This document shows, in pieces, positions 12,616-56,800 of a stretch of DNA of 64,000 bases. Source of the stretch: Chitinispirillia bacterium. Its GTDB lineage: Bacteria; Fibrobacterota; Chitinivibrionia; Chitinivibrionales; Chitinispirillaceae. The translations under genes and the position numbers were made by a program. How positions within the stretch are numbered: position 1 is the first letter of the stretch; every line of letters begins with the position of its first letter. The stretch spans positions 174-64,173 of the forward strand of contig WRCH01000002.1 of assembly GCA_009784115.1 (NCBI GenBank), given 5' to 3'. The notes under the pieces are model-generated. The model had not been told where the DNA came from. It searched no databases and worked only from the letters and a program-made list of their open reading frames with translations.

Positions 12616-12990
12616 ATGTCTCTTAATAAACGCATAAAAGAGTTTAGAAAGTATCTTGGATTAACACAAGCTGAGTTTGGCCGCAGAATTGGGATCGTAC
12701 AAGGGCACCTTACAGGTATCGAAAGCGGTAAAAAAAACGTAACTCAAAAAACGCTTAAGGTGATCTGCGCAACTTACAGTGTATCTGAAGAGTGGCTAAG
12801 AACCGGTAATGGCGAAATGATTGCCCAAAATCCCGACAAAAGAGCTATCCGGATAATCAAGTTTTTTAATGAACTAAGTTCTGAGTTTCAAGATTACATG
12901 CTCTTGCAGCTTCAAAGCCTTTTAGAATTGCAAAAAAAACAGACGGCGCCGCCGGCTGTGCATAAAAAAAAGTTACCTGATAAAAAATAA
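12616..12990 (+). CDS. XRE-family helix-turn-helix transcriptional regulator (124 aa)
   Basis: IKEFRKYLGLTQAEFGRRIGIVQGHLTGIESGKKNVTQKTLKVICATYSVSEEWLRTG is a phage-repressor-like HTH. Confidence 0.75.
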   Translation: MSLNKRIKEFRKYLGLTQAEFGRRIGIVQGHLTGIESGKKNVTQKTLKVICATYSVSEEWLRTGNGEMIAQNPDKRAIRIIKFFNELSSEFQDYMLLQLQSLLELQKKQTAPPAVHKKKLPDKK

Positions 12991-13004
12991 CTCACAGAAA
13001 AGCA

Positions 13005-13114
13005 TATGTACTGCATAACGGCACGCGTTATACACTGTGCCGCTAAGCAACCTCACGGCCTCACGTGCAGTTGCGTGCGGTGCAGTGTGAACGCGTGCCG
13101 CGCGTACCGGTATA
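13005..13114 (+). repeat. Structured repeat family A, copy A1 (forward orientation)
   Basis: It has the conserved core TGCCGCTAAGCAACCTCACGGCC..GTGCAGTTGCGTGCGGTGCAG flanked by the complementary arms CGGCACGCGTTATACACTG / CAGTGTGAACGCGTGCCG. Confidence 0.85.
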
Positions 13115-13286
13115 TTCGTATTTTCTCACTTTTTATGCAAAAATGATTCTCATTTTGGGAATTGCTTTTGCGTAGATGAGAAAATGCCTTGCCGATTCTT
13201 ATAAAATCCCCGGGCTGAAAGATCTTGCGCCCCAAAAGCGAGCTCAATAGACGCAATAATCATAATCGAATAGATGATATCCATTT

Positions 13287-13301
13287 TGGCACGACCTTTG
13301 C
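13287..13301 (+). promoter_or_regulatory. Sigma54-type -24/-12 promoter (TGGCACGACCTTTGC)
   Basis: Exact match to TGGCAC-N5-TTGC, about 140 nt upstream of the RRM gene ATG and on the same strand. Confidence 0.6.
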
Positions 13302-13440
13302 GTATTCCCTCCTGAGCATTTAAACAAAAGCTGGAAGGCTTATTGCTGAGGAAGCAGACTTATAAAGCTGCCTCTCCGCTGCTGTAAGTTCTTTATCCCG
13401 CTTATTACAAATTCACCATTTTTTGCAAAGGATCTGTTCT

Positions 13441-13731
13441 ATGTCTCAAAAACTCTACGTCGGCAACCTCCCTTACAGAACTACCGAAAATGATGTTCGT
13501 AAACTCTTCATCAAGTACGAGCCTATACACTCCGTCGTACTAATATCCGACCGCGAAACAGGACGCTCGCGCGGCTTTGGCTTCATTGAACTTGAAGAGA
13601 TTAACGCTGAGTCTGCAATCACAGAACTCGGTGATACAATCTTCGGCGGACGCAATCTGCGTATAAGCAGAGCAAAAGACAGAGACTCTGCAGATATGCG
13701 CACACCAAGATTGCAGCATGCCCACGATTAA
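13441..13731 (+). CDS. RRM-domain RNA-binding protein
   Basis: RNP2 LYVGNL and RNP1 RGFGFIEL motifs. I prefer ATG at 13441 over the upstream TTG at 13423. Confidence 0.85.
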   Translation: MSQKLYVGNLPYRTTENDVRKLFIKYEPIHSVVLISDRETGRSRGFGFIELEEINAESAITELGDTIFGGRNLRISRAKDRDSADMRTPRLQHAHD

Positions 13732-21109: not shown

Positions 21110-23029
21110 CTACTTTATCAACATCCTCACCGACTGCTTCGCCGACGCTCCGGCTGTAACATTTACGATATACGTTCCGCGTGACAGATTGTTAATACGT
21201 ATATTGTGATTGCCTTGCGGAAATTTCATTGTGCGGACCCTCTTGCCATTGATGGTATAGACGTCAACACGTCCGTCACTCGGCAAACGCAGCTGCAAAT
21301 TCCGTCCGGCAATTTTTACAAGCGGGCTAACGGCAGATGATGTACGCGCACCTTGATTCCGTACCGATATCCACTTCCCGCCGTCGGCGTCGCACAGACA
21401 ATAGACATCCTTAATCCAAAACTCACCGGCAGTACCCGCGGGTCTTTCAACATACCATGAGATCGCTTCGATGCTGTCGGGGTTAACCGCTACCGGTATG
21501 GTGTTCCAGCCCGGCTGAATGAAACCGCTCCACGGTACTACCACTTCTGTCCACTCATCGGTTTGCCTTGTGTATTCGGTCATGTGAGTCGCATAGTTTC
21601 TTACGTTGCTCTGCTCGATACGAAAAGAGTGCGCAGCGCCCTTATAGGTGTAGGCGAGGCCGAATTTGCAATGCTCGGCTAACCAGTCTATGGCGTGATG
21701 TATACCCGCGTAAGGAGTCCACTCGTAGTCTCCCTGCTCTAAAGTAAATACCGCGTGCATAACTCCGGCGGAGTCAACATCTCTTAACATTTCGGAACCA
21801 TCGTTTCCATAAGGATTCAAAGCGTCGGCAACAAGTTCAACAGGCTTTCGCTCTCCATCGTATACTTGTCTGCGCGGCGGCGTCGCTGTATCACCTTTAG
21901 TCAACCAGTGATAGACATACTTACCGTGCGGAGTCATTGCGTAGGGGTCGGTCCAGCTGCCGGTGTTAAGCGGGTTGCCCGATACTGTCCAAAAGTCCTG
22001 CACGCTTCCGCTGACAGCTACGTTCCACGCGCATGAAGATATCTTGAGTGAATCTAAAAAATTGTGCCACAGATCGGCCGAGGGGAAGTCGTAGAGGAAT
22101 TGACTTCCGGGATGAGTCGCCCCCCACTCAGATACGAATACAGGGAAACCGGCGTCAAGCACGTCCAAGATAACTTGGCGGAAAGTCTTGCCGGGACGGG
22201 CATAGTGCAAGGTATTGAGCCGGTGGCCTTGGGAATAGAAATGAAATGACACGGCGATATTGCCGAAGACATTGCCGTTTGCGTCTACGGGCGGATTAGC
22301 GGCAACTACATCCGGCACCGAACTCCAGCGCGGATTGCCTACGATAATAAGATTGTTAAAACCGGCGGCGCGAATCGCTCCAATGACCGCCTCCGCGTAG
22401 GCTTTAACCGGTCCTGTTGTTCCCGGCTCCCCCCAGTCGGGGACCGGCCCAATCGGTTCGTTGTAAATTTCGAAGATCACCGCGGGGTTGTCGCCGTACT
22501 GACCGGCAAGCTCAGGATTCGTGAAAAAATCAATCGCAAGCTGCGTCCTCTCCGCGCTGTGAGTATAATACGCGTGCCAATCAACGATGGCGTAGACTCC
22601 GCGCGAAATAGCATGATCGGTTACAAGTTTAACACGCCCCCAGTTGCCTTCAGGGTCGGTATCATAACCCTCGGTTACATAATTTTCACAAGGATTAGCA
22701 GTGCTGTTGGGACTGCAGCCCGCCGGCGAAACATAACTTATCCCTAAAGGAAACCGCAAAACATCCGCTTTCCATCCGTCAATCATCGCGTCAACCGCCT
22801 CTGTAACGAAAAACCTGCTTGTCCCCCACTGAGCAACGCTCCACGGAAAGCTGGGGCCTTTCACCTGAACGGCCTCGCCGCCGGATTTTTCACCTACGAT
22901 TTTATTCCCGTCTGCAAACAAGCGTCCGTACCTGTCAACAGGATTGCCCGCGGGCGGGTTGGCGAAAACGGTAATGGCTGATAACGCGGCGATCGCTGAG
23001 ATCAAGGCGATTTTGTTTATGCGGTTCAT
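21110..23029 (-). CDS. Glycoside hydrolase family 5 endoglucanase with C-terminal T9SS-type sorting domain
   Basis: GH5 motifs (IFEIYNEP acid/base region, VSEWG nucleophile region) and a signal peptide from MNRINKIAL. The about 80-aa C-terminal beta-sandwich (VDVYTINGKRV...GTYIVNV...MLIK) resembles a Por/T9SS CTD. Confidence 0.8.
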   Translation of the reverse strand: MNRINKIALISAIAALSAITVFANPPAGNPVDRYGRLFADGNKIVGEKSGGEAVQVKGPSFPWSVAQWGTSRFFVTEAVDAMIDGWKADVLRFPLGISYVSPAGCSPNSTANPCENYVTEGYDTDPEGNWGRVKLVTDHAISRGVYAIVDWHAYYTHSAERTQLAIDFFTNPELAGQYGDNPAVIFEIYNEPIGPVPDWGEPGTTGPVKAYAEAVIGAIRAAGFNNLIIVGNPRWSSVPDVVAANPPVDANGNVFGNIAVSFHFYSQGHRLNTLHYARPGKTFRQVILDVLDAGFPVFVSEWGATHPGSQFLYDFPSADLWHNFLDSLKISSCAWNVAVSGSVQDFWTVSGNPLNTGSWTDPYAMTPHGKYVYHWLTKGDTATPPRRQVYDGERKPVELVADALNPYGNDGSEMLRDVDSAGVMHAVFTLEQGDYEWTPYAGIHHAIDWLAEHCKFGLAYTYKGAAHSFRIEQSNVRNYATHMTEYTRQTDEWTEVVVPWSGFIQPGWNTIPVAVNPDSIEAISWYVERPAGTAGEFWIKDVYCLCDADGGKWISVRNQGARTSSAVSPLVKIAGRNLQLRLPSDGRVDVYTINGKRVRTMKFPQGNHNIRINNLSRGTYIVNVTAGASAKQSVRMLIK

Positions 23030-23185
23030 AATTGACGTACCCCTTCCATGTTTGATGACTATTATTGCGGCGTTGATAACAATATAATTCAAACCAATGC
23101 AAACACGTTGCGAAAAAAAGGGACTGCCTCAAAAATGAGACAATCCCTTATATTCCTAAATTTCAATTGTAATCTACACGCTAAT

Positions 23186-30433: not shown

Positions 30434-31201
30434 TCACTCCTGAATACAGCGCACAGAAAACCCGTGTTCCTTATTGTCGCTGTACTCATCTATCATGCCA
30501 AAGACCCAGCCTGCATGACGGCTCCAAGCGCTGCCGCTCCCCTCCTCTGTGGCGCTCCACCAGTAGGCGCCGCCGCGCATATCCCGAAAAATGCCGTCCG
30601 GGAGGCGCAGACCGCTGGGCATTATCGAAAAACCAAACTCATCCGTGCCGTTTATGTCATCTCTCCAGCCGGTTTGTGATTTAAGTTTTCTGCTTGCCTC
30701 ACCATGATCACCGGCATAAGAAAACAGATTCGCCCACTCTTCACGGCCGGGAAGCCGCCATCCCGCCGGACAAGCTTTCATCGCCGCATCCCAACTATAG
30801 AGCCGTCCATACTCCCCGCAATTACTCTCATCATCACCATAACACCATGATTCGCCTGTTTCAAAGTTGATATTTTCAGCCATCCATTTTTTATTGTCTA
30901 TTTTAACATAACGATACTCTTTGCCATCTCTTGAATCGGCAAGAATACCCGACGGCAGAGACGCGATAACTCGTTCGCCGTATCCTAAGGCTTCTAAATC
31001 TTCCATAGATTCTGCGGGTTCATCAGATTCCATGATTTCAGCTGACGATACCGCCGCCTCATTTTGGGGCGGAGACTCAGCATTAAGTTTAGACACAGCC
31101 GCGCTGCCGCCGCATCCTGCCAAAACAGCGCATAATATCAGCATCGTCAAAAAAATATTTTTCCTGCTGACTGATCGTCCATTGTAAATCGATATTTTCA
31201 T
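30434..31201 (-). CDS. FISUMP-domain (Fibrobacter succinogenes major paralogous domain) lipoprotein
   Basis: A lipobox LAGC, then WMAENINF...YGRLYSWDAAMKACPAGWRLPGREEW...YWWSATE...SVRCIQE. The ATG overlaps the upstream stop as ATGA. Confidence 0.8.
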   Translation of the reverse strand: MKISIYNGRSVSRKNIFLTMLILCAVLAGCGGSAAVSKLNAESPPQNEAAVSSAEIMESDEPAESMEDLEALGYGERVIASLPSGILADSRDGKEYRYVKIDNKKWMAENINFETGESWCYGDDESNCGEYGRLYSWDAAMKACPAGWRLPGREEWANLFSYAGDHGEASRKLKSQTGWRDDINGTDEFGFSIMPSGLRLPDGIFRDMRGGAYWWSATEEGSGSAWSRHAGWVFGMIDEYSDNKEHGFSVRCIQE

Positions 31202-32115
31202 ACTGACTTTCTGTAATCTTGAATACCTACACCGCAAAGTCTGACAAAATGTTCCTGCGCCTCCGTTACGGTTTTAAAACCGCACTGTTCGCAAATTCTA
31301 CCCAAGTCTGATTCGGCAGGATTTTCCGCAATCAGGTTTCTTATGCTGTTCACTCTTACCTGAACTATAAAACTCTGCACATCTATGCCGATCTCTTTTA
31401 CAAATAAAGCGTTAAGATACGCGGGGCCTGTAATAAGCTCACTGCATACCGTATCAACCGTAAGCTCCGGATTCATATAATTTGACTCAATACAGCGGCA
31501 CCCCTTTTGCACCATTTTGTCAAGTACTGAGAGTCTTGTTGTGGTAAGGAATCTGCGGCCGTCTTTTTTTGTTGAGAAAAACAAAACCGCGGCTATAATG
31601 ATTATCACCGAGACAATAAGGAAAACTATATAAAGCAGATTGGTCTTGACCAACCGCAGTATTTTATTTCCAGCAAAGAGCACATTTACAGCTTCTTTGT
31701 AACCCGCAGTTAGCTTTTCATCATCCGCATCTGTATTTTGAGTTGACAATGAAGCTTTTTCTGAAACTGCCGCGGCCTCCGGCTCAACAGGTTGTGTCAG
31801 TTCTGCGGTTTGCGGTTCGGTATCAACCGCGCGGAAGGCTTGCAGTACAGAATCAGACTGTTCGCTTATGACAAGATCGGTATCCAATACAATCCCCGCA
31901 GAATCCAATACCGTATCTCTCTTAACAATACTGCTGTCAACAAGAGTACCGGCAGATATTTCGGTGACGGCGGTATCTGATTTAACAGCGCCGCTGTCAG
32001 CCGAAATCGGGGCGCTGTCAGCAGCAAGCGAATCCTGAGCTTCAAGAGAAATCGACAAAAAAACAATTATGAAGAGTGTAAACGCGCGCAAAAAATTATA
32101 TTTCATCTTTAACAA
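31198..32115 (-). CDS. Membrane-anchored protein with C-terminal AraC-type HTH domain
   Basis: A signal/anchor, an S/D/A/V-rich low-complexity region, an internal TM segment (LLYIVFLIVSVIIIIAAVLFF) and a C-terminal AraC-like HTH (VDTVCSELITGPAYLNALFVKEIG...). Confidence 0.6.
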   Translation of the reverse strand: MLKMKYNFLRAFTLFIIVFLSISLEAQDSLAADSAPISADSGAVKSDTAVTEISAGTLVDSSIVKRDTVLDSAGIVLDTDLVISEQSDSVLQAFRAVDTEPQTAELTQPVEPEAAAVSEKASLSTQNTDADDEKLTAGYKEAVNVLFAGNKILRLVKTNLLYIVFLIVSVIIIIAAVLFFSTKKDGRRFLTTTRLSVLDKMVQKGCRCIESNYMNPELTVDTVCSELITGPAYLNALFVKEIGIDVQSFIVQVRVNSIRNLIAENPAESDLGRICEQCGFKTVTEAQEHFVRLCGVGIQDYRKSV

Positions 32116-35691: not shown

Positions 35692-36327
35692 CTATCTGTC
35701 TTCTATTATCTCTTTCACAGACCACAGCACATAGCTGTCATCCACATATAGATCTATCTGTATTCCATTTGAAAGACACTCATATTTAGGATTTATGTAC
35801 GCGTCATGATACCCTTTGGGCGTTGTGTATTTATCTACCCTTTTTTCTATTGGATAACGCTTTATTGAACGGTACAGAGTATACACGTGCCCCGGTTCGA
35901 AAACGTCTAGTGATTGGCGCTTTTTAAGGGTGTATGAGCCTGAGGCGCAGGTGTATCCGCCTGCAATTACATTTTTGTTTTCGTGACAGGGGAAAGGTAT
36001 AATCACTAAAGCCGAAGCATATGTGGAGATGAATACCGGTATAAAAACAAGCAGAGCCGTGCCCGTAAGCAGTTTGTTTTTTTTAGTACCGCACAGCCAT
36101 AGAAGCTCTGTTATAATCGTAAGAAAAACGATATAAAGAAAACCGTTTAAACTGTCAGACGCAAACAAAACATTATTAATATTAAATATAAACGCAATCA
36201 AAAAGAACACGGCATAAGCATAATACCTTATTTTTTTAAAAGGCACCCACTTATTGAGCGCAAAACCCAGCGCGCCGATAACGGCGATAAGAAGCCATTC
36301 TAATATGCCGTGCATTGCTTCTACCAC
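35692..36327 (-). CDS. Hypothetical integral membrane protein (4-5 TM plus about 90-aa soluble C-terminal domain)
   Basis: Hydrophobic helices in the N-terminal 120 aa. The start overlaps the stop of the upstream KAS III fusion gene by 7 bp. Confidence 0.6.
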   Translation of the reverse strand: MVEAMHGILEWLLIAVIGALGFALNKWVPFKKIRYYAYAVFFLIAFIFNINNVLFASDSLNGFLYIVFLTIITELLWLCGTKKNKLLTGTALLVFIPVFISTYASALVIIPFPCHENKNVIAGGYTCASGSYTLKKRQSLDVFEPGHVYTLYRSIKRYPIEKRVDKYTTPKGYHDAYINPKYECLSNGIQIDLYVDDSYVLWSVKEIIEDR

Positions 36328-37649
36328 TCTATAGACAAACCGGCGGCTGTAATACCTGCCCCTACCGTACAGAAAATGATTTTGTCATTTTTCTGAATCC
36401 CTTTCTCAATCTCAGAAAGAGCCACAGGAATGCTTGCACAGGAGGTATTGCCCACTCTGTCTATGTTTAAATAGAAACGCTCAAAAGGGACGCCGCTTCT
36501 CTCTGCCGCGGCTTTGATGATACGGCCGTTGGCCTGATGAGGCACGACCCAGCGTACATCTTCAGGAGTCCATTTGCTTTTAATTATAAGCTCGCGCACC
36601 ATACCGGAGAAACTCTCTGTCGCGAATCGAAAAAGCGCTTTACCGTCAAGACGCACCCACGGATCAAAGGATGTTGTGTTATCAGGCACTTCGTATCCGG
36701 GATATTCACGCCTTGCCATGTGTAAACCCATAGAGTCGGCGCTCAAAATTTCTTCCTTTATGACGTGGCCTTTTTGCGTGCCGCTGAGTACTGTCGCTCC
36801 GGCTCCGTCACCAAACAGAAAATATGTATTCTTATCATTTTTGTCAAGGACTCTTGACTGCATGTCAACACCGGTAACAAGCACATTCTTTGCGACGCCT
36901 GAGAGTATAAGTCCGCGCGCGACAGATATCCCGTAAAGCCAGCCGGAACACGCGGCGTTAAGATCAAAAGCGGGTACGCCGCGGATCCCGAGTTTACCCT
37001 GTAAGATACAAGCTGTTGAGGGCATCACAACGTCAGGTGTAGTTGTTGATACTATTATAGCATCAATATCAGACGGTTTTAAACCGCTGTTCTCTATCGC
37101 TTTGCGGGACGCTTCGTGAGCCATATCCGACGGCTTGACATCTGCGGGGGCCCAGCGCCGTTCTCTTATCCCCGTTACCCCAAAAATATACTCTTCTGTA
37201 ATATCGGGAAAGTGAACTAAAAGCTCTTCGTTTTTAACTACTCTGTCGGGAAGATATATTCCAAAACCAAGCAGGCTGATTGTACGCACCGACGGCTCAA
37301 GGGTATCCGCGACAATAGTCATTTTAGGTATTTCTACACTTACTGCCGCCATTTCGGGTTTATGATCGGGCCGTACAGCACAGCGCATCGATTCGTCGCT
37401 TGTAGCGATTTGCGCCACAGGTTTTTCAAACGGAACGGAGGCGCCGTCGCCATAGTACAATTTTTCTATTTTGCCATCGCATGGAGCTTCAAAATCGAAT
37501 GTCGATTTCGCGCTCTCAATCTCAGCAATAGGCTCACCTTTTTTAAACTCAGCACCCACGCCTACAAACCACTTTGTAATGACGGCCTCGGTTTCCGCCG
37601 CCGCCTGAGTCGGAATAAAAAGCTCTGTACTGAAAATATTACTGCTCAC
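36321..37649 (-). CDS. Lipoyl/biotinyl-attachment domain fused to 3-oxoacyl-ACP synthase III (FabH-like)
   Basis: Residues 1-85 form a single hybrid motif (ITKWFVGVGAEFKKGEPIAEIESAKSTFDFEAPCDGKI, candidate Lys48). Residues from about 120 to 442 are KAS III with Cys (AACSGW), His (HQANGRI) and Asn (GNTSCASIP). Confidence 0.8.
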   Translation of the reverse strand: MSSNIFSTELFIPTQAAAETEAVITKWFVGVGAEFKKGEPIAEIESAKSTFDFEAPCDGKIEKLYYGDGASVPFEKPVAQIATSDESMRCAVRPDHKPEMAAVSVEIPKMTIVADTLEPSVRTISLLGFGIYLPDRVVKNEELLVHFPDITEEYIFGVTGIRERRWAPADVKPSDMAHEASRKAIENSGLKPSDIDAIIVSTTTPDVVMPSTACILQGKLGIRGVPAFDLNAACSGWLYGISVARGLILSGVAKNVLVTGVDMQSRVLDKNDKNTYFLFGDGAGATVLSGTQKGHVIKEEILSADSMGLHMARREYPGYEVPDNTTSFDPWVRLDGKALFRFATESFSGMVRELIIKSKWTPEDVRWVVPHQANGRIIKAAAERSGVPFERFYLNIDRVGNTSCASIPVALSEIEKGIQKNDKIIFCTVGAGITAAGLSIEW

Positions 37650-39649
37650 TTTACGTCTCCAATCATTTTTGCTATAGCCGCTTCAATTCTGCCTGCATCC
37701 GGCAGATAGGCGGATTCAAGTTCCTTGGCAAAAGGAACCGGCGTGTCCGGCGCGCTTACAAGCACCGGTGCGCACTTTAACTGTGAGAAACACTTCTGCA
37801 CCGCAAGGGATATAAAATGAGACCCCATTCCGGCAATCTCACCCGCCTCCTGTACAACAAGCAGTCTCCCCGTAGAGCGGACCGAATCTAAAATCGGCTC
37901 GAAGCTCAATGGATTTAATATAAATGGATTCCACACCGACGCGCTGTAATTTTTCGCGCTTACCGCGTTAAGCGCCTGTTCAACCATAGCGCCGACTGCT
38001 ACTATTGTAATATCCGCGCCCTGCGTGTATTGACGCGGGCGATAGACTTTTTGTAAACTGCCGTCAAACTCAATATCCCCGGCTTTTCCCCAATAAAGGA
38101 GTTTATGCTCAAAAACAATACACGGGTTAGGATCATAAAATCCCGCTATCAGAGCCTCATAAGTCTCCTGAGGAGTAACAGGGTAAAATAACTTGAGCCC
38201 GGGGAAGCGCGACCAAAGCCCGTCAAATTCGCCGCTGTGAAACGCGCCCAAAGTAATGCCGCCGCCGCTGGGAAGTCTAAATAAAAGCTGAGCTGGCTTA
38301 CCGGAACGGAAAAACCATGTCCCGGTATTCACCCCAAGCTGAGTTACCGCTTCGGTTGAAAAATCGGCAAACTGAAACTCCATCACAGGTAAACTTCCGG
38401 TCTGCGAAGCGCCAAGACAAAATCCTACTGTACCCGCTTCACAAATAGGCGTATCTATTATTCTCTCCGACCCAAAGCGGTCAACTAAACCCTTACAGGT
38501 TTTAAACGCTGAGCCGTATTTACTGACGTCTTGACCGCAGACAAACGCGTTACTGTTCTCTTCAAGTATATGGCCAAGCGCGGTGTTAATAGCGTTAGTA
38601 TTGCGCACACTCTTTGCGGAGTAAGGTTTTACGGATTTAGATTTTACAGGCGCAAATACATCCATCGACACAGACGACGCGTCGGGCCTTGCGGCTTTAA
38701 GAGCCTCATTGACTAACGAGTCGAGTTGACTGCAAAGTGAGTTCTCTAACTCGGCAAGCTCATGTTCGTCCGCGTTGCAATTTTCCAAATACGCGGCGCG
38801 GGCATGAACGAGAGGATCTTTTTTCCAGTTCGCGGCCTTTACCTCGTCGGAAATATATTCAGCGTTATCATAAACGGCATGACCCTCAAGCCGCACCGTC
38901 ATACTCTCAATAAGCACAGGCTGGGGTGATGATGACATAAGCTCAAGCGAATCTGTAACCGCGCTGTAAACTTCGTAAGCGTCAAGACCATTTACAGTCC
39001 GCCCCTTAATCCCGTATCCCGCCGCTCTGTCCGCAAGCGATTTACAGTTATATTGATACTCTACAGGCGTAGAAAAAGCGTACCCGTTATTTTCGATAAT
39101 AAACACGACTGGAACTTTATTGACAGAGGCCATATTCAACGCCTCATGAAACTGCCCCGTGCTGCTGCCGCCGTCTCCAATCACCGCGAGTCCAAACGCG
39201 CCGCTGCCGTTTCTGCGGGCAGACCATGTTGATCCTACCGAAATCGGAAGCATACTGCCAAGATGGCTGACCATTGGAAAGCGCAAAGCGTCTGTATCTC
39301 CAAAGTGTACATTACCCTCTTTGCCGTGGGTTGGGCTCTGCGCGTTTGCCATATACTGGCAAATAGCGCTCAGCGGATCACAGCCAAGTATAAGGTGAGA
39401 GCCAAGATTGCGGTGGAGCAGGGTTGCGATATCTTTACCCGGCGTAAACGGCATAGCCATCCCAACCGAGCTTGCCTCATTTCCCGCGGCGATAATAACG
39501 GTTCCCTTAACAAGCCCTTTTCTAAAAAGTTCCTTGAATCTGTTATCAAGCTGCCGCGCGGTATACATTGCGGGATAAGCGGTAATATAGAACTCACTTT
39601 TATCCAAACGCCGCGGAAAACGCGCTATATCACTGAAAACAGCATCCAA
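37646..39649 (-). CDS. 2-oxoacid dehydrogenase E1 component, fused alpha and beta subunits (ThDP-dependent)
   Basis: The alpha part has the ThDP motif GDGGSSTGQFHEALNMA...ENNGYA. The beta part has the transketolase-like Pyr domain (IDTPICEAGTVGFCLGA). It overlaps the downstream gene by 4 bp. Confidence 0.85.
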   Translation of the reverse strand: MDAVFSDIARFPRRLDKSEFYITAYPAMYTARQLDNRFKELFRKGLVKGTVIIAAGNEASSVGMAMPFTPGKDIATLLHRNLGSHLILGCDPLSAICQYMANAQSPTHGKEGNVHFGDTDALRFPMVSHLGSMLPISVGSTWSARRNGSGAFGLAVIGDGGSSTGQFHEALNMASVNKVPVVFIIENNGYAFSTPVEYQYNCKSLADRAAGYGIKGRTVNGLDAYEVYSAVTDSLELMSSSPQPVLIESMTVRLEGHAVYDNAEYISDEVKAANWKKDPLVHARAAYLENCNADEHELAELENSLCSQLDSLVNEALKAARPDASSVSMDVFAPVKSKSVKPYSAKSVRNTNAINTALGHILEENSNAFVCGQDVSKYGSAFKTCKGLVDRFGSERIIDTPICEAGTVGFCLGASQTGSLPVMEFQFADFSTEAVTQLGVNTGTWFFRSGKPAQLLFRLPSGGGITLGAFHSGEFDGLWSRFPGLKLFYPVTPQETYEALIAGFYDPNPCIVFEHKLLYWGKAGDIEFDGSLQKVYRPRQYTQGADITIVAVGAMVEQALNAVSAKNYSASVWNPFILNPLSFEPILDSVRSTGRLLVVQEAGEIAGMGSHFISLAVQKCFSQLKCAPVLVSAPDTPVPFAKELESAYLPDAGRIEAAIAKMIGDVK

Positions 39650-39854: not shown

Positions 39855-40937
39855 TTATCCGCCATTTTTCACATGTACTAAAAAAGCCCCGGCCAAAGCG
39901 CCGATCGCAAGCCATGTGAGCCACTGTGTTCTTACCATACCATACCAATACTCCAAACTGAAAAACGGAGCCTCATGCAATGGCAAATGGCTGCGGCGGT
40001 CTGTTATACGCCGGTCGCTTGCGTCGGTTTGTTTTGTCGTTTTAGCGGAAGCTTTCGCGGTTGCGGGGCGAAAGGTAACGGTGTCGCGCTCGACAAGTTC
40101 CGCCGGGTCTACTGAGTCAAGATGCTCAAGAAGCTCTTCCACCGATTCATAGCGGTCGTGTTTCTCTTTTTTCAGACTCTTTAAAATAATGAGCTCCAAG
40201 CGCTTGGGGGTATCTTTGCGCTTGACAGAGGGCGGTATGGGCTGTTCGTGCACCTGTTTATAGGCGACAGCCATTGAGTTATTGGCTGTAAAGGGAGGCT
40301 TGCGGGTCAGCATCTCATACATCAAAATACCAAGAGAATAAATATCTGTCTGAGCATCAAGTTTTTTGCCTTGCGCCTGTTCGGGAGACATATATTCGGG
40401 CGTACCTACGGCGGAACCTGTCATGGTGATGCCGGAGCTTGATGATATTTTCGCTATTCCGAAATCACTTATGTGTATAACCTTGTTTTTGTCAAGAAGT
40501 ACATTAGACGGTTTTATGTCTCTGTGAATGATATTGAGGTTATGCGCGTAACGCAGTCCGCGGCAGATCTGTTTTGCAAAATCTATTATTTCGGGAACAG
40601 AAATAACGCGGGTTTCATTAATATAGGTTCCAAGATCCATTCCGTCAACAAGCTGCATTGCGATAAAACGGTATCCGTCAGCTTCACCGTATTCATATAT
40701 ACTTACAATATTCTGATGTTCCATCTTGGAGATCGCCTGAGCTTCAATCTCAAATCTTTTAGAAAACTCTTCGTCGCGTGAGAGTTGGAGCGGCAGTACT
40801 TTGAGCGCTACATTGCGGTTAAGCGGTTCCTGTACCGCCTTGTAAATATCACCCATGCCGCCCTTGCCCAATTTACCGCTAATCCTGTACTTACCAATGT
40901 AAGCCGGTTCCAAATCTGTAAATTTATTTTTTTGCAT
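39855..40937 (-). CDS. Hanks-type serine/threonine protein kinase with C-terminal TM segment
   Basis: GKGGMGDIYKA, VALKVL, HRDIKPSNVLL, DFGIAK and GTPEYMSPE motifs. Confidence 0.9.
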   Translation of the reverse strand: MQKNKFTDLEPAYIGKYRISGKLGKGGMGDIYKAVQEPLNRNVALKVLPLQLSRDEEFSKRFEIEAQAISKMEHQNIVSIYEYGEADGYRFIAMQLVDGMDLGTYINETRVISVPEIIDFAKQICRGLRYAHNLNIIHRDIKPSNVLLDKNKVIHISDFGIAKISSSSGITMTGSAVGTPEYMSPEQAQGKKLDAQTDIYSLGILMYEMLTRKPPFTANNSMAVAYKQVHEQPIPPSVKRKDTPKRLELIILKSLKKEKHDRYESVEELLEHLDSVDPAELVERDTVTFRPATAKASAKTTKQTDASDRRITDRRSHLPLHEAPFFSLEYWYGMVRTQWLTWLAIGALAGAFLVHVKNGG

Positions 40938-40956
40938 TTGTCTAACCCCTTTGGGC

Positions 40957-43164
40957 TTAAGCAGCCGCTCCGTGACGTCCCGAACCGCGCCTCTTTAGCG
41001 CAATTCCAAATAAAATAATTAATCCGCAGCAAAGCAAGGATAATTCTGTCCACTCCTTATGCCAAAAGAGCGGTTCGTCTGTGAACTCCTTGCGCAAAAG
41101 TACGAATTTCATTCTTCCGAATATTGGCCGCGAAATAGTCAAATGGGAGAGCTTTTCTCCCCATTTTGCCATGAGTTCAAAAGGTACAATCGCTCCTGAA
41201 AAAAATATCTGCGGGATGAGAATTATTGGAAGCGTGCTTATGGCGCGCCCAACGCAGCCGCTGCATGCGCTAACCGCAAGCCCAAGCAGATTGCCGCAAA
41301 ATACCGCGATAAAAAGCAGCAGTAAAAGTTCCATGGAGAATGTTATATTGCTAAACATAATGACTGCAAATATCGCAAACAAAAGCGCCTGAACAGCGCT
41401 CAGAGCTCCGGCTGCCGTGATTCTTGCTACAATATAAGACAATTGATTAAGACCGCATTTACTCTCCCTGTCTATAAGCTGGCGCTCCCGCGCAACTTCT
41501 CTGACCGCGTCAAGTCCTCCAACCCAAATGCCTATAATTGTCAAACAGAAACAGAGCCCGGTGTCAATGATAGACGTTTTCTCGTAGACTAATCCAAGCA
41601 GAAGCGTTATGAGCGGGGTCTGCATGAGCAGAATAGCGATATTCCTGTGGTCTCTTGTGTAAACCTTTGTATACCGTGACGTTAGCGCCGCTGCTTGACG
41701 TATGAAAAATGAGATACTTCGCAAAGGATGTCTTAACTTTGAAGCCCACTCGCCGTGTGAGAGATTTTGATTTGAGTGATGAGAACTGATCTGTTCTGTT
41801 TGCATCTGACGGGTTTGCTGATCGGGCTCGCAATTCGCGGCCCTGTCATAAACTTGACAAAGAGCCGGCGCTTCGAAATGGGAGCAAAGATTTTGGGGCG
41901 GGCCGCAAAACAGCACCTTTCCTCTTTGCATGAATACTACTCTGTCACATAGCTCAAGCTGTTCAAGAGTATGAGTTACGAGGATAAGAGTATGCCCCTT
42001 GTCGCAGATGCGGCGGAAGAGCTGCATGAATTTTCCTATAAGCCCAGGGTCAAGACCCGCTAAAGGTTCGTCAAGAATAAGCACCGACGGGGAGGCGAGA
42101 AGTTCCACCCCAACATGAAGCCGCCTTGCCTCTCCGCCTGAGAGATTAGCGACGCGGTGATTCCTTAGCCGCTTAAGCTCCATAAGCTCAAGCACCTCTT
42201 CCGCGCGCATGAGACGCTCGTTTGCGGTGCTGTCTCCCGGGAGCCTCATAAGGCTTTGATCTGTCAACGTCTCCCAAACCGTTAATTCCGACCGCAAAAG
42301 AACCTGCTGCGAGACGTAGCCTATGCCGCGGGCAAAAGCGGCTCCGAATTTTGAAGCGGGAAACCCGTTCATAAAAAGCCGGCCCGATGTAGGAGCAACA
42401 GAGCCGCAAAGAACACGCGAGAGCGTTGACTTGCCGGCGCCGCTTGCGCCAAGAAGCGCCACAAACGCGCCCGGCTCAATTGTTATGCTTACATCATCGA
42501 GCAGCTTTTTGCCTTTGATACGCAATCCTAAAGTGAGGCCCTCTATTTTTATCTTGTTAAGATCGTCGGCCCTTAGAAATTTACCGCCTGATACGTAAAA
42601 CCGAAACGGGCCGATGTGCACCGCGTCCCCTTCGTAAAGAGGCGCGGTTCTGACAGCGCGGCCGTTTACATAAGTTGAATTGGAGCTGCCCTCGTCGGTG
42701 ATTACAAGTCCGCCGTGGTCGCTTTTTACAACGGCGTGAAAACGGGAGACCAAAGGATGAGGCAGGTAGATATCATTTGCTGTATCCCGCCCGATTTTCA
42801 AAGTTTTTTTATTTTCATCCTGCGGGATAGAGGCGCCTTTTTCGGAGTCGGGAGCTGTGAGGCTGATAAAACCATCGCTGATTTCAATCTGCAAAATCTG
42901 AATGCCTATAGTTAAAACAGAGCCGTTGGCAAGGAGGCCCTCTTTTACAGGCGAGTCGTCGATACGTATTCCGAAAGTGCTCTCAGAATCAATAATAACA
43001 GGGGATGCGCTGTCGCAGATGATCTGAGCGTGCAGGCGCGACACTCCAACGCCGCCAAGGCATATGTCGCAGGAAGCGTCACGGCCTATGCTGCGTTTTT
43101 GGCCGTCAAGCGGAAAACGGAATTCGGTTTGTGCAGTATTAGTTACAGGAGCCGCGGATATCAT
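40957..43164 (-). CDS. ABC transporter with two N-terminal FHA domains, an NBD and an ABC-2 permease domain fused (Rv1747-like architecture)
   Basis: FHA1 (SIGRDASCDICL...VSRLHAQI) and FHA2 (KIGRDTANDIYL...VSRFHAVV). Walker A GASGAGKST, signature LSGGEARRL, Walker B ILDEPLAGLD, and 6 C-terminal TM helices. Confidence 0.85.
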   Translation of the reverse strand: MISAAPVTNTAQTEFRFPLDGQKRSIGRDASCDICLGGVGVSRLHAQIICDSASPVIIDSESTFGIRIDDSPVKEGLLANGSVLTIGIQILQIEISDGFISLTAPDSEKGASIPQDENKKTLKIGRDTANDIYLPHPLVSRFHAVVKSDHGGLVITDEGSSNSTYVNGRAVRTAPLYEGDAVHIGPFRFYVSGGKFLRADDLNKIKIEGLTLGLRIKGKKLLDDVSITIEPGAFVALLGASGAGKSTLSRVLCGSVAPTSGRLFMNGFPASKFGAAFARGIGYVSQQVLLRSELTVWETLTDQSLMRLPGDSTANERLMRAEEVLELMELKRLRNHRVANLSGGEARRLHVGVELLASPSVLILDEPLAGLDPGLIGKFMQLFRRICDKGHTLILVTHTLEQLELCDRVVFMQRGKVLFCGPPQNLCSHFEAPALCQVYDRAANCEPDQQTRQMQTEQISSHHSNQNLSHGEWASKLRHPLRSISFFIRQAAALTSRYTKVYTRDHRNIAILLMQTPLITLLLGLVYEKTSIIDTGLCFCLTIIGIWVGGLDAVREVARERQLIDRESKCGLNQLSYIVARITAAGALSAVQALLFAIFAVIMFSNITFSMELLLLLFIAVFCGNLLGLAVSACSGCVGRAISTLPIILIPQIFFSGAIVPFELMAKWGEKLSHLTISRPIFGRMKFVLLRKEFTDEPLFWHKEWTELSLLCCGLIILFGIALKRRGSGRHGAAA

Positions 43165-50769: not shown

Positions 50770-51654
50770 TTACAGAGCAATATTTCCTGCATGTACAAAT
50801 GACAATCCGGCGTCATGACCAATCTTTAAAGCTTTTTTGACCGATTCCGCCAAGGTAACAGAACGGTCAGCGAATTTATACTGCGGAAAAAACCTTGACA
50901 CATGCCAAGGGACATCTTTACCCAAATCGTCAGCGATAAATTTCGCGATACCTTTTAACTCATCATCGGAATTATTTTCACCGGTGATAACAAGTGTAGT
51001 AACCTCAAGCCAAATCCCTAATTTTTTAATGAGTTTCAACGAATCTAAAACAGGCTGAAGAGAAGCGCCGCACTGCTTTTTATAGAAATCATCACTAAAT
51101 GATTTAAGATCAATATTGCAAGCGTCAAGATACGGACTGATCATCTCCAAAGCCTGTGAAGTCATATATCCGTTTGATACGAATATCGTTTTAAGTCCTC
51201 TTTGTTTAGCGATCTTTGCAATATCCAGCGCGTATTCAAAAAATATCGTCGGTTCTGTGTATGTAAATGAGATGCTTTCACATCCATGCTTAATAGCTTT
51301 CTCAACAATCTTTTCAGGTGAGGATTCATCACCGCGGTATTTATCGGTATCACCCATTGCGGATATTTGAGAGATATTCCAGTTTTGACAAAAACCGCAT
51401 CTGAAATTACATCCCGCTGCGGCTATGGAATAAGTGATGCTTTTGGGAAGGAAGTGATAGAGCGGTTTTTTTTCGACAGGATCAATATTTTCAGCAATTG
51501 TATGACCGTAAGCGTATGTGTATAGTGATCCGTCAATATTTTTTCTTACTGAGCAGACGCCTCTGTTTCCCGGTGTTATACGGCAGCGATGAGCGCACAA
51601 AGAGCAGACTACTATTTTACCCCCGACACTCTCCCACAGAATCGCTTCTTTCAT
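50770..51654 (-). CDS. AmmeMemoRadiSam-system radical SAM enzyme (PFL-activase-like)
   Basis: N-terminal CSLCAHRC...GVC and the radical SAM motif CNFRCGFCQNW. The start is uncertain (51654 or 51726). Confidence 0.8.
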   Translation of the reverse strand: MKEAILWESVGGKIVVCSLCAHRCRITPGNRGVCSVRKNIDGSLYTYAYGHTIAENIDPVEKKPLYHFLPKSITYSIAAAGCNFRCGFCQNWNISQISAMGDTDKYRGDESSPEKIVEKAIKHGCESISFTYTEPTIFFEYALDIAKIAKQRGLKTIFVSNGYMTSQALEMISPYLDACNIDLKSFSDDFYKKQCGASLQPVLDSLKLIKKLGIWLEVTTLVITGENNSDDELKGIAKFIADDLGKDVPWHVSRFFPQYKFADRSVTLAESVKKALKIGHDAGLSFVHAGNIAL

Positions 51655-51700
51655 AAATACATTATACGATCGGCCATAAAGTGAGTCAACGGAAAAACCA

Positions 51701-51907
51701 TTATTCAAACTGTTTAAGATTAACAACCTTTATCGCGGTGCGCGGACAAAACTGTACCGCAAGAGTGCACTCCTCCTCAAGCGAAAAGGGGACGCAAAAA
51801 ACCTTTGAGACTGCCTTGCCGCTTGGAGCCTGACCAAAAAGATCGGGGCTAAAACTCACACACATCCCGCAGCCGCAGCATAAATTTTCCTCTATCTTAA
51901 TTCTCAT
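51701..51907 (-). CDS. Small [4Fe-4S]/[3Fe-4S] ferredoxin
   Basis: CCGCGMC...CP cluster motif, about 68 aa from MRIKIEE. Confidence 0.7.
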   Translation of the reverse strand: MRIKIEENLCCGCGMCVSFSPDLFGQAPSGKAVSKVFCVPFSLEEECTLAVQFCPRTAIKVVNLKQFE

Positions 51908-53874: not shown

Positions 53875-56800
53875 TTATTTAGGCGGCGGATGCACAACTA
53901 ACTTTTTTATTTTGCTCTTTGTTGTTTTGCCAAGAGACGGTGAGGTGACAGAGACTTGGTATAGATAGACATTGGGCGTTAACATATTTCCTCTGTTGTC
54001 TCTTGGGATCCACAGGTAGCCATTCGCGAGATCACGCGGGTAGCGGGGGCGTATAACAGCAAGGAGTCTGCCGCCAAGAGAGTATACTCTTATGATTACT
54101 ATCAAATCTTCATTGTTATATCTGTCTACGTTAGAATGATGAAAGAAGAAGCGAGTCTCTCTGCCCATTCGTACAGGGTTGGGAATGTTGAGCACATGAT
54201 CAAGTTTAATATCCATCGGGTCAACTATCTCTAAAGTAAATGACTGCCTGCTCACATTACCCAAGAGATCCTGTGCGGTTACTACTAATTCGTGAACGCC
54301 GCTCTTTAACGTATTTTCCTCATAATTGACAGTGGCGATACGGCAGCGGTAATCACCGCCCAAACAAAAATCATTGGCGGCGATACTGCGCTTGGAGAGC
54401 GAACCCAAAACCTCTATCGTGAGCCCCTCATCGGGCCCGCTTCCAATCACATTTACACCGCTCTCATCCTCCACACGAATCTCAAGAGTAAGCGGGAGCT
54501 GCGCTCTGATGCGGGTTTTAACAAAAAATCCCAAAGAATCCATCGAATTGCTGCTATAGATCGGCCTCACGCTAATTTTAGGGCCTGTGGTGTCGCTCAG
54601 GTTACCGGTTTCAGAACCGGCGAAAACAAGACCCTTGAGAGCTCCGGTTCCCATCAAAGTGTCTCTTTCTCTAAAAGCGTAAGCGGTAAGTTTTACGCCG
54701 GGCTTTCCAAAGGAGAGATTCATCGGCAAGCGCAGCGTCTGTTCAAACCTGCCGGAATCAACGGCAATTTTCGCGCTGAAAACAGGAGCGCCGGGCAGCT
54801 CGTATCTTGGGTCTGAAAAAACGCCGCCGTCTTTTCTGCGCGCCGCCGTGTCCGGAGCGTTAAACAGAATTATGTTAACAAATGCGCTGTCTCTCTCTTT
54901 TGCGGTAAAATCTCTATCCATTTGCCCTGAAAAACGATTCACAGAACCCTTTATGGTTATCTGCTGCAGAGCTTTCAATGTATCAATTACAGGTTCGCCT
55001 GACGAGTTTACAATTTCAAGATCGACATTGCGGTTTTGTCTTGACAGAGTTATGGACGGATCTCCCAAAAGTACATAGTACCTGTCGTCAACATGCTGGT
55101 GGCTGTATTTTCCAATTCGCAAAGCGGCTCCAACCGACATATTATCGGTAGAATCAAACAGAGCTTCATAAAAAGCCTCCGCTAATCTCTCATTAGGATC
55201 ACGGAGTGTTACGCGTGTGGCGGAAATAACGCCTATGGCTCCGGCTCTGGGCTGGCGGACAAGCTGAGCGCTGAGACATTCAACTCCGGGAAGATCAAAT
55301 TTACCTATGGAACAGGAAAACAGTGAAAATACCGGATAGCGTTTTCTGTTATGTAAAGCTAAAACATCCGCCATCGCAAACAGCGGTTCATCCGCAAGCT
55401 GATTATTTGAGCCGTGCCCTAACCAATTGACCGCGGCAACTCCGTTATTTATCTCATTTATAAACGCTCTAGTTGCCGTAGGCTTTGCCCAAAAATCATC
55501 CCACGGGTATTCATACATATACACTTTCCTGATATCTGTCGCGGGCCTGTTTCTCAATATGGTTCGGGCGATTCTTTCCGAAGCGCTGTGGTGGTCAAGA
55601 ATATGATCTTTAAACTCACGCTGCTGGTCATCATCTGCCGTAAGCAAAACTCTATTGCGCCATGAATCAAGATCCGCCTCAGCGACATTTTCCATCTCTC
55701 GGATTTTCTCTACAATGTTTAACGCTTCCGTTAAGCTCTTTGCCGGCAGACGCCCTATAAAATAGTGCACCTGATGATCTCTTGAGGGTCTATCAGGGTG
55801 AGACAGTGTATCTAAAAAAACAAAATAATCATCTGTAGCCCATTTGTGACTGCTGGTCGCTCCGTTTGTACGGTACGCTACAGGCATGAAATTCATTTGA
55901 CGGGTAGTAACGCTCTTGTAGTCATAATGCCCCAAGCCAAAAAGTGTTACGTAGTCTAACTTTACATCCCTGTCCCAGTTTCTGTATACAAAAAGCAGAA
56001 AGTTTCTTATTGCCGTAGGATCCATGTTTCCGCCGCTGAATTGATTCAGCAAATCGGAGAGCAGTACTACTTTAGGATATTTGAACCCGGCGTTATCTCT
56101 CTTGTGTTCAGCCAGCCTTAATGCGGCATCCAAAAAATCTTCGTGAGTTATGATAAGATAATCGGTGCGGGTCTCGCCGGGATATACGGTACCGCGCAGA
56201 TCACGAATCAAAAATGAGCTGCCCGCAGACTGATAGCCGACGCGCTTTAAAGAGTCGCTGTAGTCAACAATACTGTTTTTCGACATCACGATATATCTTG
56301 TTCCCTGATTACCGGCGTCACTCCATGTGAAACCGGTGCGCACTACGGTATCGGCAATAAGCGTTACGTCTCTTTCGTCAAGCGGAACGCGAACTATAAA
56401 CGCGGTATCACTACCTGTTTTAGTCAACCTGTACCGAACGGCTCTGGAAGCTGTGTCGGAGAAAATTTCGAGCCTCTCACCGGCGGCGGAACCGGGCATG
56501 GCAATAGGGCGCCTGTAGCGGATATGCACCCCTCTGAGCTCGGCGCTCTCCGCATTTTGTCCGTCAATCGTTAGATCACTTGAACCCCAGCGATTGGTAT
56601 TAATCGTCCACCAAGTATTATTGGCGCAGGAGGAACAAATCGAAGCGGAGCCAAGGCGGGCCGTTATGTTTCTGGAGAACGCGTTATTGAAATCAAAAGA
56701 TATTGAGCCGGTTCTGTTTTCCAAAAGCCCCGGCAGATCAAGCGATACCGTGGTATCCGCTCTGCCGGTATCAAACCTCTTCCATACCCAGTCTATACCG

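Follow-up and report, generated by a model that had tools for sequence, protein, structure and literature searches.

We examined a 64,000-nucleotide stretch of DNA from a Chitinispirillia bacterium (contig WRCH01000002.1, positions 174 to 64,173; hereafter the window) that encodes, on its minus strand, a single-chain 2-oxoacid dehydrogenase E1 and, directly after it, a protein in which a lipoyl domain is joined to KAS III (FabH), a beta-ketoacyl-acyl carrier protein (ACP) synthase III. An earlier note made from the sequence had described three open reading frames (ORFs) here: a fused E1 alpha-beta, the lipoyl-KAS III fusion and a membrane protein. All three are present as it had them, and Pfam and NCBIfam searches together with an intact Cys-His-Asn triad bear out the anatomy of the first two (Table 1). 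The E1 stop codon and the start of the fusion gene overlap by 4 bp, with a GGAG Shine-Dalgarno sequence 8 nt upstream, an arrangement predicted to couple translation of the two genes. Over 53 Fibrobacterota and Planctomycetota loci the median spacing between the pair is likewise -4 nt. The nearest relatives of the window are Chitinispirillales metagenome-assembled genomes (MAGs), which we take from their isolate names to come from termite guts.

The E1 carries the three domains of the heterotetrameric alpha/beta class (PF00676, PF02779 and PF02780) in order on one chain. Its thiamine diphosphate (ThDP) motif GDG...NN is made up of GDGG (residue 158) and ENNGYA (residue 186). In the alpha part, His257 within 'LEGHAV' aligned with the second His of 'IGHHST' in the E1 alpha of human branched-chain 2-oxoacid dehydrogenase (BCKDH), and in the beta part the His of 'FHSGEF' aligned with His128 of G. 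stearothermophilus E1 beta. The protein also keeps the Glu of 'DTPICEAG', and so has the ThDP-activating beta Glu and both active-site His residues characteristic of the class. Reductive acylation in such enzymes involves the active-site His residues of both the alpha and the beta part. The protein scored below the NCBIfam cut-offs for pyruvate dehydrogenase (PDH) E1 (TIGR03181, TIGR03182 and NF006667, at 193 against 411, 187 against 394 and 187 against 321 bits) and below every other NCBIfam equivalog cut-off, and no substrate class can be assigned to it from sequence.

In the fusion protein, Pfam placed Biotin_lipoyl at residues 12-81 (E = 2e-12). Compared with solved structures, 19 of the 20 matches of the N-terminal domain were lipoyl or H-protein domains, the best being a PDH E2 (dihydrolipoamide acyltransferase) at 1e-8, and Lys48 falls at the aligned position of the lipoyl-lysine of AceF. 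Together with an E3-binding domain in sister proteins, this evidence favors the lipoyl carrier that the earlier note had proposed over a biotinyl one, with a predicted modifiable lysine at the hairpin as in an E2. In the AlphaFold2 model (pLDDT 91) a disordered tether connects two confidently predicted domains, with local values of about 90-97 over residues 21-90, 74-80 over residues 1-20 and below 50 over residues 95-106; the modeled tether is compatible with a swinging arm. Pfam found neither a peripheral subunit-binding domain (PSBD, PF02817) nor the PF00198 catalytic core of an E2 in this protein, and KAS III stands in place of the core. Lacking this core, the fusion is not an E2; it fits the definition of that family in its lipoyl domain only, with the PSBD in addition in the sister form.

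The C-terminal part is a complete KAS III. ACP_syn_III spans residues 228-299 and ACP_syn_III_C residues 357-442 in Pfam scans, and residues 123-442 passed the NCBIfam cut-offs for FabH (TIGR00747, 303.6 against 292.1 bits; NF006829, 323.8 against 249). Among solved structures, T. thermophilus FabH comes closest (1ub7, E = 2.6e-67). Cys234, His371 and Asn401 form the intact triad that the earlier note had read from the sequence, and with Asn374 and Arg376 they make up the residue set expected of a FabH.

The lipoyl-KAS III fusion is kept in more than 240 full-length homologues. Carriers occur in at least five phyla, comprising Fibrobacterota, Planctomycetota, Verrucomicrobiota, Spirochaetota and one cultured cyanobacterium. 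Complete genomes of cultured strains are among them, which disposes of the assembly or frameshift artefact that the earlier note had raised against itself. The best 120 homologues of the window protein are 57-95% identical to it, about 440 aa long and all equipped with PF00364 and KAS III domains (form A), and a scan of species-representative genomes added many further Planctomycetota with the ~440-aa form. Two further architectures emerged when the hits of an exhaustive search over 1.84 billion cluster representatives were scanned with Pfam. Form B, of about 510-530 aa (P0124, P0127), has the order lipoyl domain, E3_binding domain (PSBD) and KAS III, with 169-223 aa ahead of the KAS domain compared to 112-133 aa in form A. 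PF02817 was detected in most of the 120 homologues of one search and in most Opitutales homologues; PSBD-containing proteins occur in Spirochaetota (Salinispira pacifica, Spirochaeta lutea) and in Opitutales (Ereboglobus luteus, Pelagicoccus, Verrucomicrobiae DG1235). By domain order, form B is an E2 layout in which nothing but the catalytic core is exchanged, for a ketosynthase. In a third architecture (form C), a single chain of about 1,130 aa combines E1 alpha-beta, lipoyl domain and KAS III (P0141, accession WP_218080544.1, encoded in the complete genome of Anthocerotibacter panamensis, a cultured cyanobacterium, and P0142, a cluster of 9 members). We found no description of a lipoyl-KAS III protein in full-text literature, subscription-only papers lying outside the reach of that search, in agreement with the earlier note, which knew of no characterized lipoyl-FabH fusion.

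A neighbor-joining bootstrap with fragments removed grouped forms A and B at 84% and all three forms at 64%. Independent origins of the three fused forms, which we had considered, are unsupported by these values, and we claim no convergence. Stand-alone KAS III proteins bearing the signature of the fused clade (P0125, P0261), considered as possible pointers to a separately encoded lipoyl domain, were rejected as fragments, their genes beginning at contig base 1-2. In several Planctomycetota MAGs (L054, L055, L058, L060, L061 and L088) the E1 and fusion genes appeared as split tblastn segments; these are suspected, to go by MAG naming alone, to be long-read assemblies, and the splits are probably assembly indel errors and not true pseudogenes.

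Residue patterns were counted in an alignment of 352 sequences, numbered on E. coli FabH from NC_000913. The lipoyl-lysine is present in 247 of 247 fused proteins, as are Cys112, His244, Asn274 and Asn247 of the KAS III domain, and Arg249 is present in 246. A further Cys nine residues past the lipoyl-lysine, within A-P-C-D-G, is found in 243 of the 247 (119/120, 115/117 and 9/10 in the three fused forms); this is Cys57 of the window protein, where E. coli AceF has Phe. For Cys57 and the Thr83-x-Asp85 element at the end of the lipoyl domain, a second thiol or a docking element are possibilities.

The contacts to coenzyme A (CoA) follow a different pattern. In E. coli FabH, the CoA adenine lies between Trp32 and Arg151 and is hydrogen-bonded to Thr28, and the phosphopantetheine is hydrogen-bonded by Arg36 (PMC4606726). 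Among the nearest 100 unfused FabHs, Thr28 is found in 87, Trp32 in 97, Arg36 in 85 and Arg151 in 89. Across the 237 proteins of forms A and B, position 32 is never Trp (Tyr or Glu), position 36 is never Arg (Val, Leu or Ile) and position 28 is mostly Ile or Val, while the single-chain form is without Thr28 and Arg151. In the window protein, Ile, Tyr, Val and Lys occupy positions 28, 32, 36 and 151; it thus lacks the nucleotide contacts of a canonical FabH. A same-genome control is provided by a Pirellulales MAG (L030), in which the lipoyl-KAS III gene is followed, 1.4 kb downstream, by a gene for a canonical 323-aa FabH (12718-13686): the canonical enzyme has Trp32, Arg36 and Phe304, whereas its fused paralogue has Tyr, Val and Val. 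The alignment indicates a selective loss of CoA contacts with retention of the catalytic and ACP-docking residues.

We compared 89 loci by tblastn, a few of them duplicates of one contig, and counted E1 genes over those loci with upstream DNA. An E1 alpha-beta gene lies directly upstream of the fusion in 24/24 Fibrobacterota and 29/29 Planctomycetota loci and in one spirochete locus, as opposed to 0/26 in Opitutales; conservation of the E1 neighborhood, a check that the earlier note had called for, is therefore complete in the first two phyla and absent from Opitutales. Unbiased clustering of flanking ORFs revealed nothing apart from E1 that is common between phyla. Recurrent neighbors within groups are RadC in Fibrobacterota and pyrG, kdsA and rsmE in Opitutales. 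The RadC-family gene lies directly downstream of the pair in 24 Fibrobacterota loci (L001, L002 and L007-L009 among them). A conserved 543-aa ORF upstream in Opitutales, tried as an alternative decarboxylase, turned out to be CTP synthase, and the other neighbors there are kdsA and rsmE. Two loci from MAGs labeled 'Fibrobacter sp.' (L002 and L003) have flagellin and FliS genes within 8 kb of the pair. Fibrobacter is described as non-motile (Table 2 of PMC4814513), and the 'Fibrobacter' labels of these two MAGs are probably too narrow.

Partner genes of a conventional complex were missing from the window, as the earlier note had observed for the E2 core and E3 (dihydrolipoamide dehydrogenase). 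tblastn with E. coli AceF (catalytic part), Lpd, LipA, LipB, AcpP, FabD, FabG and FabF found no homologue in the 64 kb, and Pfam scans of 30 other window ORFs detected no E2 core, E3, LipA/B, ACP or Fab gene; the behavior of tblastn was checked before these negatives were accepted. A radical-SAM ORF at 50770-51726, considered as a LipA candidate, did not match E. coli LipA. The description 'E2-less' applies, as shown here, at the level of the locus. That lipoyl metabolism exists is suggested by the PSBD of sister proteins and by a GCV_T gene carried by L096, a related MAG.

Table 1. Features of the E1/lipoyl-KAS III locus in window coordinates; residue numbers refer to the encoded protein
Feature	Position	Strand	Residues	Basis or remark
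Fused E1 alpha-beta gene	37646..39649	minus	667 aa	Longest (TTG) start; Pfam
E1_dh	38690-39562	minus	30-320	Pfam, 5e-53
Transket_pyr	38093-38608	minus	348-519	Pfam, 1.5e-26
Transketolase_C	37685-38023	minus	543-655	Pfam, 6.6e-26
GTGA overlap (E1 stop codon/GTG start of lipoyl-KAS III gene)	37646..37649	minus		Read from sequence
Lipoyl-KAS III fusion gene	36321..37649	minus	442 aa	
Lipoyl domain	37395..37634	minus	~6-85	Pfam Biotin_lipoyl, structure matches, AlphaFold2
Lys48 codon (lipoyl-lysine position)	37506-37508	minus	48	Aligns with AceF lipoyl-lysine
Cys57 codon	37479-37481	minus	57	Conserved
Thr83-x-Asp85	37395-37403	minus	83-85	End of lipoyl domain; nearly invariant in forms A and B
Inter-domain linker	37284..37394	minus	86-122 (~37 aa)	No E3-binding domain
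KAS III (FabH) domain and stop codon	36321..37283	minus	123-442	NCBIfam, residue mapping
Ile150 codon (E. coli Thr28)	37200-37202	minus	150	Altered CoA contact
Tyr154 codon (E. coli Trp32)	37188-37190	minus	154	Altered CoA contact
Val158 codon (E. coli Arg36)	37176-37178	minus	158	Altered CoA contact
Cys234 codon	36948-36950	minus	234	Catalytic
Lys273 codon (E. coli Arg151)	36831-36833	minus	273	Altered CoA contact
His371 codon	36537-36539	minus	371	Catalytic
Arg376 codon	36522-36524	minus	376	ACP-docking
Asn401 codon	36447-36449	minus	401	Catalytic
Adjacent ORF, not part of the module	35692..36327	minus	207/211 aa	Membrane-spanning by eye only

We propose, as the probable reading, that the gene pair encodes a minimal hybrid system, part 2-oxoacid dehydrogenase and part fatty-acid initiation enzyme, in which KAS III takes the place of the E2 core and the acyl group cycles from the arm to KAS III. 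The E1, presumably a dimer of the alpha-beta fusion, would decarboxylate a 2-oxoacid on ThDP. The later steps, the substrate and the quaternary structure we infer from the architecture, conservation, E1 linkage and residue patterns observed across the loci. E1 would reductively acylate the lipoyl-Lys48 arm of its partner protein, and the S-acyl-dihydrolipoyl arm would then enter the KAS III tunnel in place of the pantetheine arm of acyl-CoA, passing its acyl group to Cys234 by thioester exchange. KAS III would condense the acyl-Cys with malonyl-ACP, with His371 and Asn401 in catalysis and Arg376 in ACP docking, and the resulting 3-oxoacyl-ACP would feed type II fatty-acid synthesis. A dihydrolipoamide dehydrogenase encoded elsewhere would re-oxidize the arm; in the sister form, the PSBD argues for recruitment of E3, E1 or both just as in a normal E2. 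The earlier note had suggested direct delivery from the arm to the KAS III cysteine. That idea gains considerable comparative support from the single chains, the PSBD forms, E1 adjacency and the loss of CoA contacts, while the transfer step itself we still infer.

The likeliest substrate in this member of the Chitinispirillales is a branched-chain 2-oxoacid, namely 2-oxo-3-methylvalerate, leading to anteiso fatty acids, because carriers with lipid data are dominated by anteiso-C15:0. There are two such cultured carriers: Chitinispirillum alkaliphilum, which has the E1/lipoyl-KAS III pair, and Pelagicoccus mobilis, which has the PSBD form (L070). C. alkaliphilum is an obligate fermenter with anteiso-15:0 as its main fatty acid, making acetyl-CoA by way of pyruvate:ferredoxin oxidoreductase and pyruvate formate-lyase, and its genome paper describes no PDH or other 2-oxoacid dehydrogenase complex (PMC4814513). 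Anteiso-C15:0 is likewise dominant in P. mobilis and other Opitutaceae (PMC13274419). Pyruvate is a possible substrate in lineages not known for branched lipids.

Several observations weigh against this proposal. At the 89 loci, tblastn found no E3, E2 core, lipoate-synthesis, ACP or fab gene within 10 kb, and re-oxidation of the arm is unexplained both for the form lacking a PSBD and for an obligate fermenter. At least one genome, that of the Pirellulales MAG, also encodes a canonical FabH, so initiation need not depend mainly on the fused enzyme. The loss of CoA binding may be incomplete: Tyr32 could stack the adenine, many form A and B proteins have Arg or Lys at 151, and use of acyl-CoA is possible. 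The residue losses may represent one or two evolutionary events and not 237, since A and B group as a single clade and a common origin of every fused form is possible. The nearest solved E1 alpha is of BCKDH type and the nearest E1 beta of PDH type, which point in different directions as to the 2-oxoacid. Finally, Gloeobacterales and Planctomycetota are, to our knowledge, not noted for branched fatty acids.

Among the alternatives the one that survives best, although we hold it unlikely, is that the fusion serves for tethering only. The lipoyl domain would dock FabH on a conventional complex, or KAS III would pass the acyl group to CoA first, and acyl-CoA would still be the primer at a raised local concentration. 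E2 and E3 may indeed be encoded elsewhere in these genomes, the search having covered the 64-kb window and 10-kb flanks; the Opitutales copies sit amid housekeeping genes with no adjacent E1, like an ordinary fabH; and Tyr32 with Arg or Lys at 151 might bind CoA. However, docking alone leaves unexplained the invariance of the lipoyl-lysine in all 247 proteins, the fact that no form A or B protein retains Arg36 or Trp32, and the existence of single chains that join E1, lipoyl domain and KAS III without an E2 core. Nor is a 2-oxoacid dehydrogenase complex, on which such docking would rely, described in the genome paper of C. alkaliphilum.

We consider it improbable that the pair primes a specialized lipid or a polyketide-like product, such as an alkyl-resorcinol, an olefin or a signaling lipid, and not bulk membrane fatty acids. 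No conserved polyketide synthase, tailoring, reductase or export genes lie near the pair in any phylum, synteny is limited to E1 plus RadC in Fibrobacterota, and the Opitutales copies lie between pyrG and rsmE. The domain moreover scores as a true FabH and not as DarB, StlD or PqsD, and anteiso fatty acids dominate the membrane acyl chains of carriers with lipid data. Such a role would nevertheless fit the canonical FabH found alongside the fusion in at least one genome (L030) and the altered primer pocket of form A, which differs from E. coli FabH by F87M, L142Q and L189A; KAS III-like enzymes are also often recruited to secondary metabolism.

We give still less credence to a pure transacylase, in which KAS III would act as an E2 analogue that relays the acyl group, with no condensation, from dihydrolipoyl either to holo-ACP or to some other thiol and leaves FabF or FabB to elongate the acyl-ACP. 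Precedents exist in the acyl-CoA:ACP transacylase side activity of FabH and in the KAS III-like pure acyltransferases DpsC and CerJ, and the conserved ACP-docking Arg would suit this role. Yet His244, Asn274 and Asn247 are invariant, residues with which simple acyl transfer could dispense and whose roles lie in malonyl decarboxylation and in the oxyanion hole, and the domain passes the NCBIfam cut-offs for FabH. It is very improbable that the N-terminal domain carries biotin, or serves structurally without modification, and that no lipoyl chemistry takes place. In favor of this, PF00364 covers biotinyl and lipoyl domains alike, one of the 20 structure matches comes from methylcrotonoyl-CoA carboxylase (its biotinyl domain, E = 7.6e-4) and form A has Ala in place of Asp ahead of the lysine (ESAK). 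Against it, the best matches are E2 lipoyl domains, the Met-Lys-Met motif is absent and the sequence resembles 'ESVKA' of H-protein, the canonical [DE]K or GDKA motif is found in forms B and C, an E3-binding domain adjoins in form B, the obligate partner is a lipoyl-dependent E1, and no carboxylase genes lie nearby.

All of these alternatives are weakened by the constancy of Lys48 and the decarboxylation residues, by the single chains without an E2 core, by the lost CoA contacts and by the lack of conserved tailoring genes. On balance we lean, by a little over even chances, toward a hitherto unrecognized, CoA-independent initiation of fatty-acid synthesis, widespread over five phyla and carried out by a small assembly akin to 2-oxoacid dehydrogenase complexes that would have KAS III as its catalytic core and be neither icosahedral nor cubic, in which the Cys nine residues past the lipoyl-lysine might add an extra thiol step. 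KAS III is a dimer, and E2 cores are trimer-based 24- or 60-mers.

The third ORF proved separate from the module. It is 211 aa long from the earliest GTG, and NCBI annotates an identical protein of 207 aa from an ATG at 36315. Whereas the 4-bp overlap reported by the earlier note between E1 and the fusion stands, the 7-bp overlap it reported between the fusion and this ORF arises only with the earliest GTG; the ATG start leaves a 5-nt gap. The protein has no Pfam or NCBIfam match. Its family comprises ten homologous clusters, all in Chitinispirillales, and tblastn found no homologue in the 89 lipoyl-KAS loci. In five relatives with gene tables (64-95% identity), including the 95%-identical one, RadC is downstream of the pair. 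Homologues of the ORF in L096 and L097 adjoin FlgM, and in L097 also an FAD oxidoreductase, with no E1 or KAS gene adjacent, and in the window too its neighbors are FlgM and an FAD oxidoreductase. The comparison indicates that the ORF is a real gene but an accidental neighbor, brought in by a local rearrangement, because the position of RadC is here taken by the membrane ORF/FlgM/FAD oxidoreductase block. Absent from the 89 loci and with homologues of its own in the FlgM block, it was rejected as a part of the module, and the earlier suggestion that a co-translated membrane protein hints at a lipid product falls with it.

Other parts of the window contain features of separate interest. Directly upstream of the E1 gene, in a position not conserved in relatives, lie a Ser/Thr protein kinase gene and a gene for a 735-aa protein with two FHA domains, an ATP-binding cassette (ABC) ATPase and an ABC-2 permease (39855-43164, minus strand); the latter may be a phospho-regulated transporter. 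An 802-aa fusion of NuoE-like 2Fe-2S, NuoF-like FMN and ferredoxin domains (16738-19146, plus strand) resembles HydB/HydC of the NADH-dependent or bifurcating [FeFe] hydrogenases described for C. alkaliphilum in its genome paper. Positions 1-2000 (ORFs 309-935 and 919-1839) have a G+C content of 0.39 compared to about 0.46, and one ORF there has, by eye from its N-terminal sequence, the look of a serine recombinase or resolvase; this region may be the edge of a mobile element. Further genes encode a GH5 cellulase with a Por_Secre_tail, the type IX secretion sorting domain (21110-23092), a 1,375-aa C25 peptidase of the gingipain family (53875-58002) and a Fib_succ_major-domain protein (30434-31237), which fits a Fibrobacterota origin.

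If the proposal is true, the pair would provide a new entry to type II fatty-acid synthesis, from 2-oxoacid to 3-oxoacyl-ACP without acyl-CoA, and a new role for lipoyl domains as acyl donors to a ketosynthase, where only phosphopantetheinyl carriers have been known so far. It would explain anteiso fatty acids in strict fermenters such as Chitinispirillum, for which no BCKDH complex has been described. Hundreds of proteins now labeled 'beta-ketoacyl-ACP synthase III' or '2-oxoisovalerate dehydrogenase E1' would call for re-annotation, and the modular E2 scaffold of lipoyl domain, PSBD and core would be seen to accept a completely different catalytic fold. Engineering would gain a compact device, of two proteins or one chain, with which 2-oxoacids derived from amino acids could prime the synthesis of fatty acids or polyketides. 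Cultured carriers allow direct testing, among them Pelagicoccus mobilis, Ereboglobus luteus, Spirochaeta lutea, Salinispira pacifica, Chitinispirillum alkaliphilum and Anthocerotibacter panamensis. An endosymbiont among the Verrucomicrobiota, 'Ca. Organicella extenuata', has reportedly kept PDH and full type II fatty-acid synthesis and lacks FabH (PMC8204192). Its 'E2' or another of its genes is a possible candidate for a lipoyl-KAS III protein.

The proposed acyl-transfer step is unprecedented. Among the closest known systems is the BCKDH complex that feeds FabH in Bacillus, Staphylococcus and Listeria, in the synthesis of branched fatty acids, which is alike in its heterotetramer-class ThDP E1, its lipoyl-lysine arm, the KAS III Cys-His-Asn triad, the ACP-docking Arg and the likely output of branched iso/anteiso primers. 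It differs in that here the locus has no E2 core of the chloramphenicol-acetyltransferase-like (CAT-like) type, the lipoyl domain is joined to KAS III, the E1 is a single chain, and the KAS III lacks the CoA contacts Thr28, Trp32 and Arg36, acyl-CoA presumably being skipped. Canonical FabHs (E. coli 1HND/1HNH; T. thermophilus 1ub7) share the triad, Asn247 and Arg249, whereas the fusion adds the N-terminal lipoyl domain and, relative to E. coli, the changes T28I, W32Y, R36V, R151K, F304V and F87M. Besides FabH with acetyl-CoA, a 2024 paper (PMC10869286) names a malonyl-ACP decarboxylase and FabB in Pseudomonas putida as initiation routes. These, too, are alternatives to starting with acyl-CoA and FabH, but they are not known to involve a lipoyl carrier or direct use of a 2-oxoacid.

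With the E2 family (lipoyl domain, PSBD and PF00198 core), the fusion proteins share the lysine position and the flexible linker, and the Opitutales and spirochete forms keep the PSBD order. Here, however, the C-terminal domain is a thiolase-fold KAS III, and the proposed acceptor is not CoA but the active-site cysteine and then malonyl-ACP. In the AcoC-type E2 of acetoin dehydrogenase, a lipoyl domain is fused to an acetyltransferase of the alpha/beta-hydrolase fold, and the product is acetyl-CoA. The best lipoyl-containing NCBIfam family for the window protein is this AcoC type (NF011457, residues 8-87, E = 1.2e-11), the match covering the lipoyl domain only. AcoC comes closest as a precedent for a lipoyl domain attached to a non-CAT-like catalytic fold and working with an E1 alpha/beta, the difference being that the catalytic domain here is KAS III.

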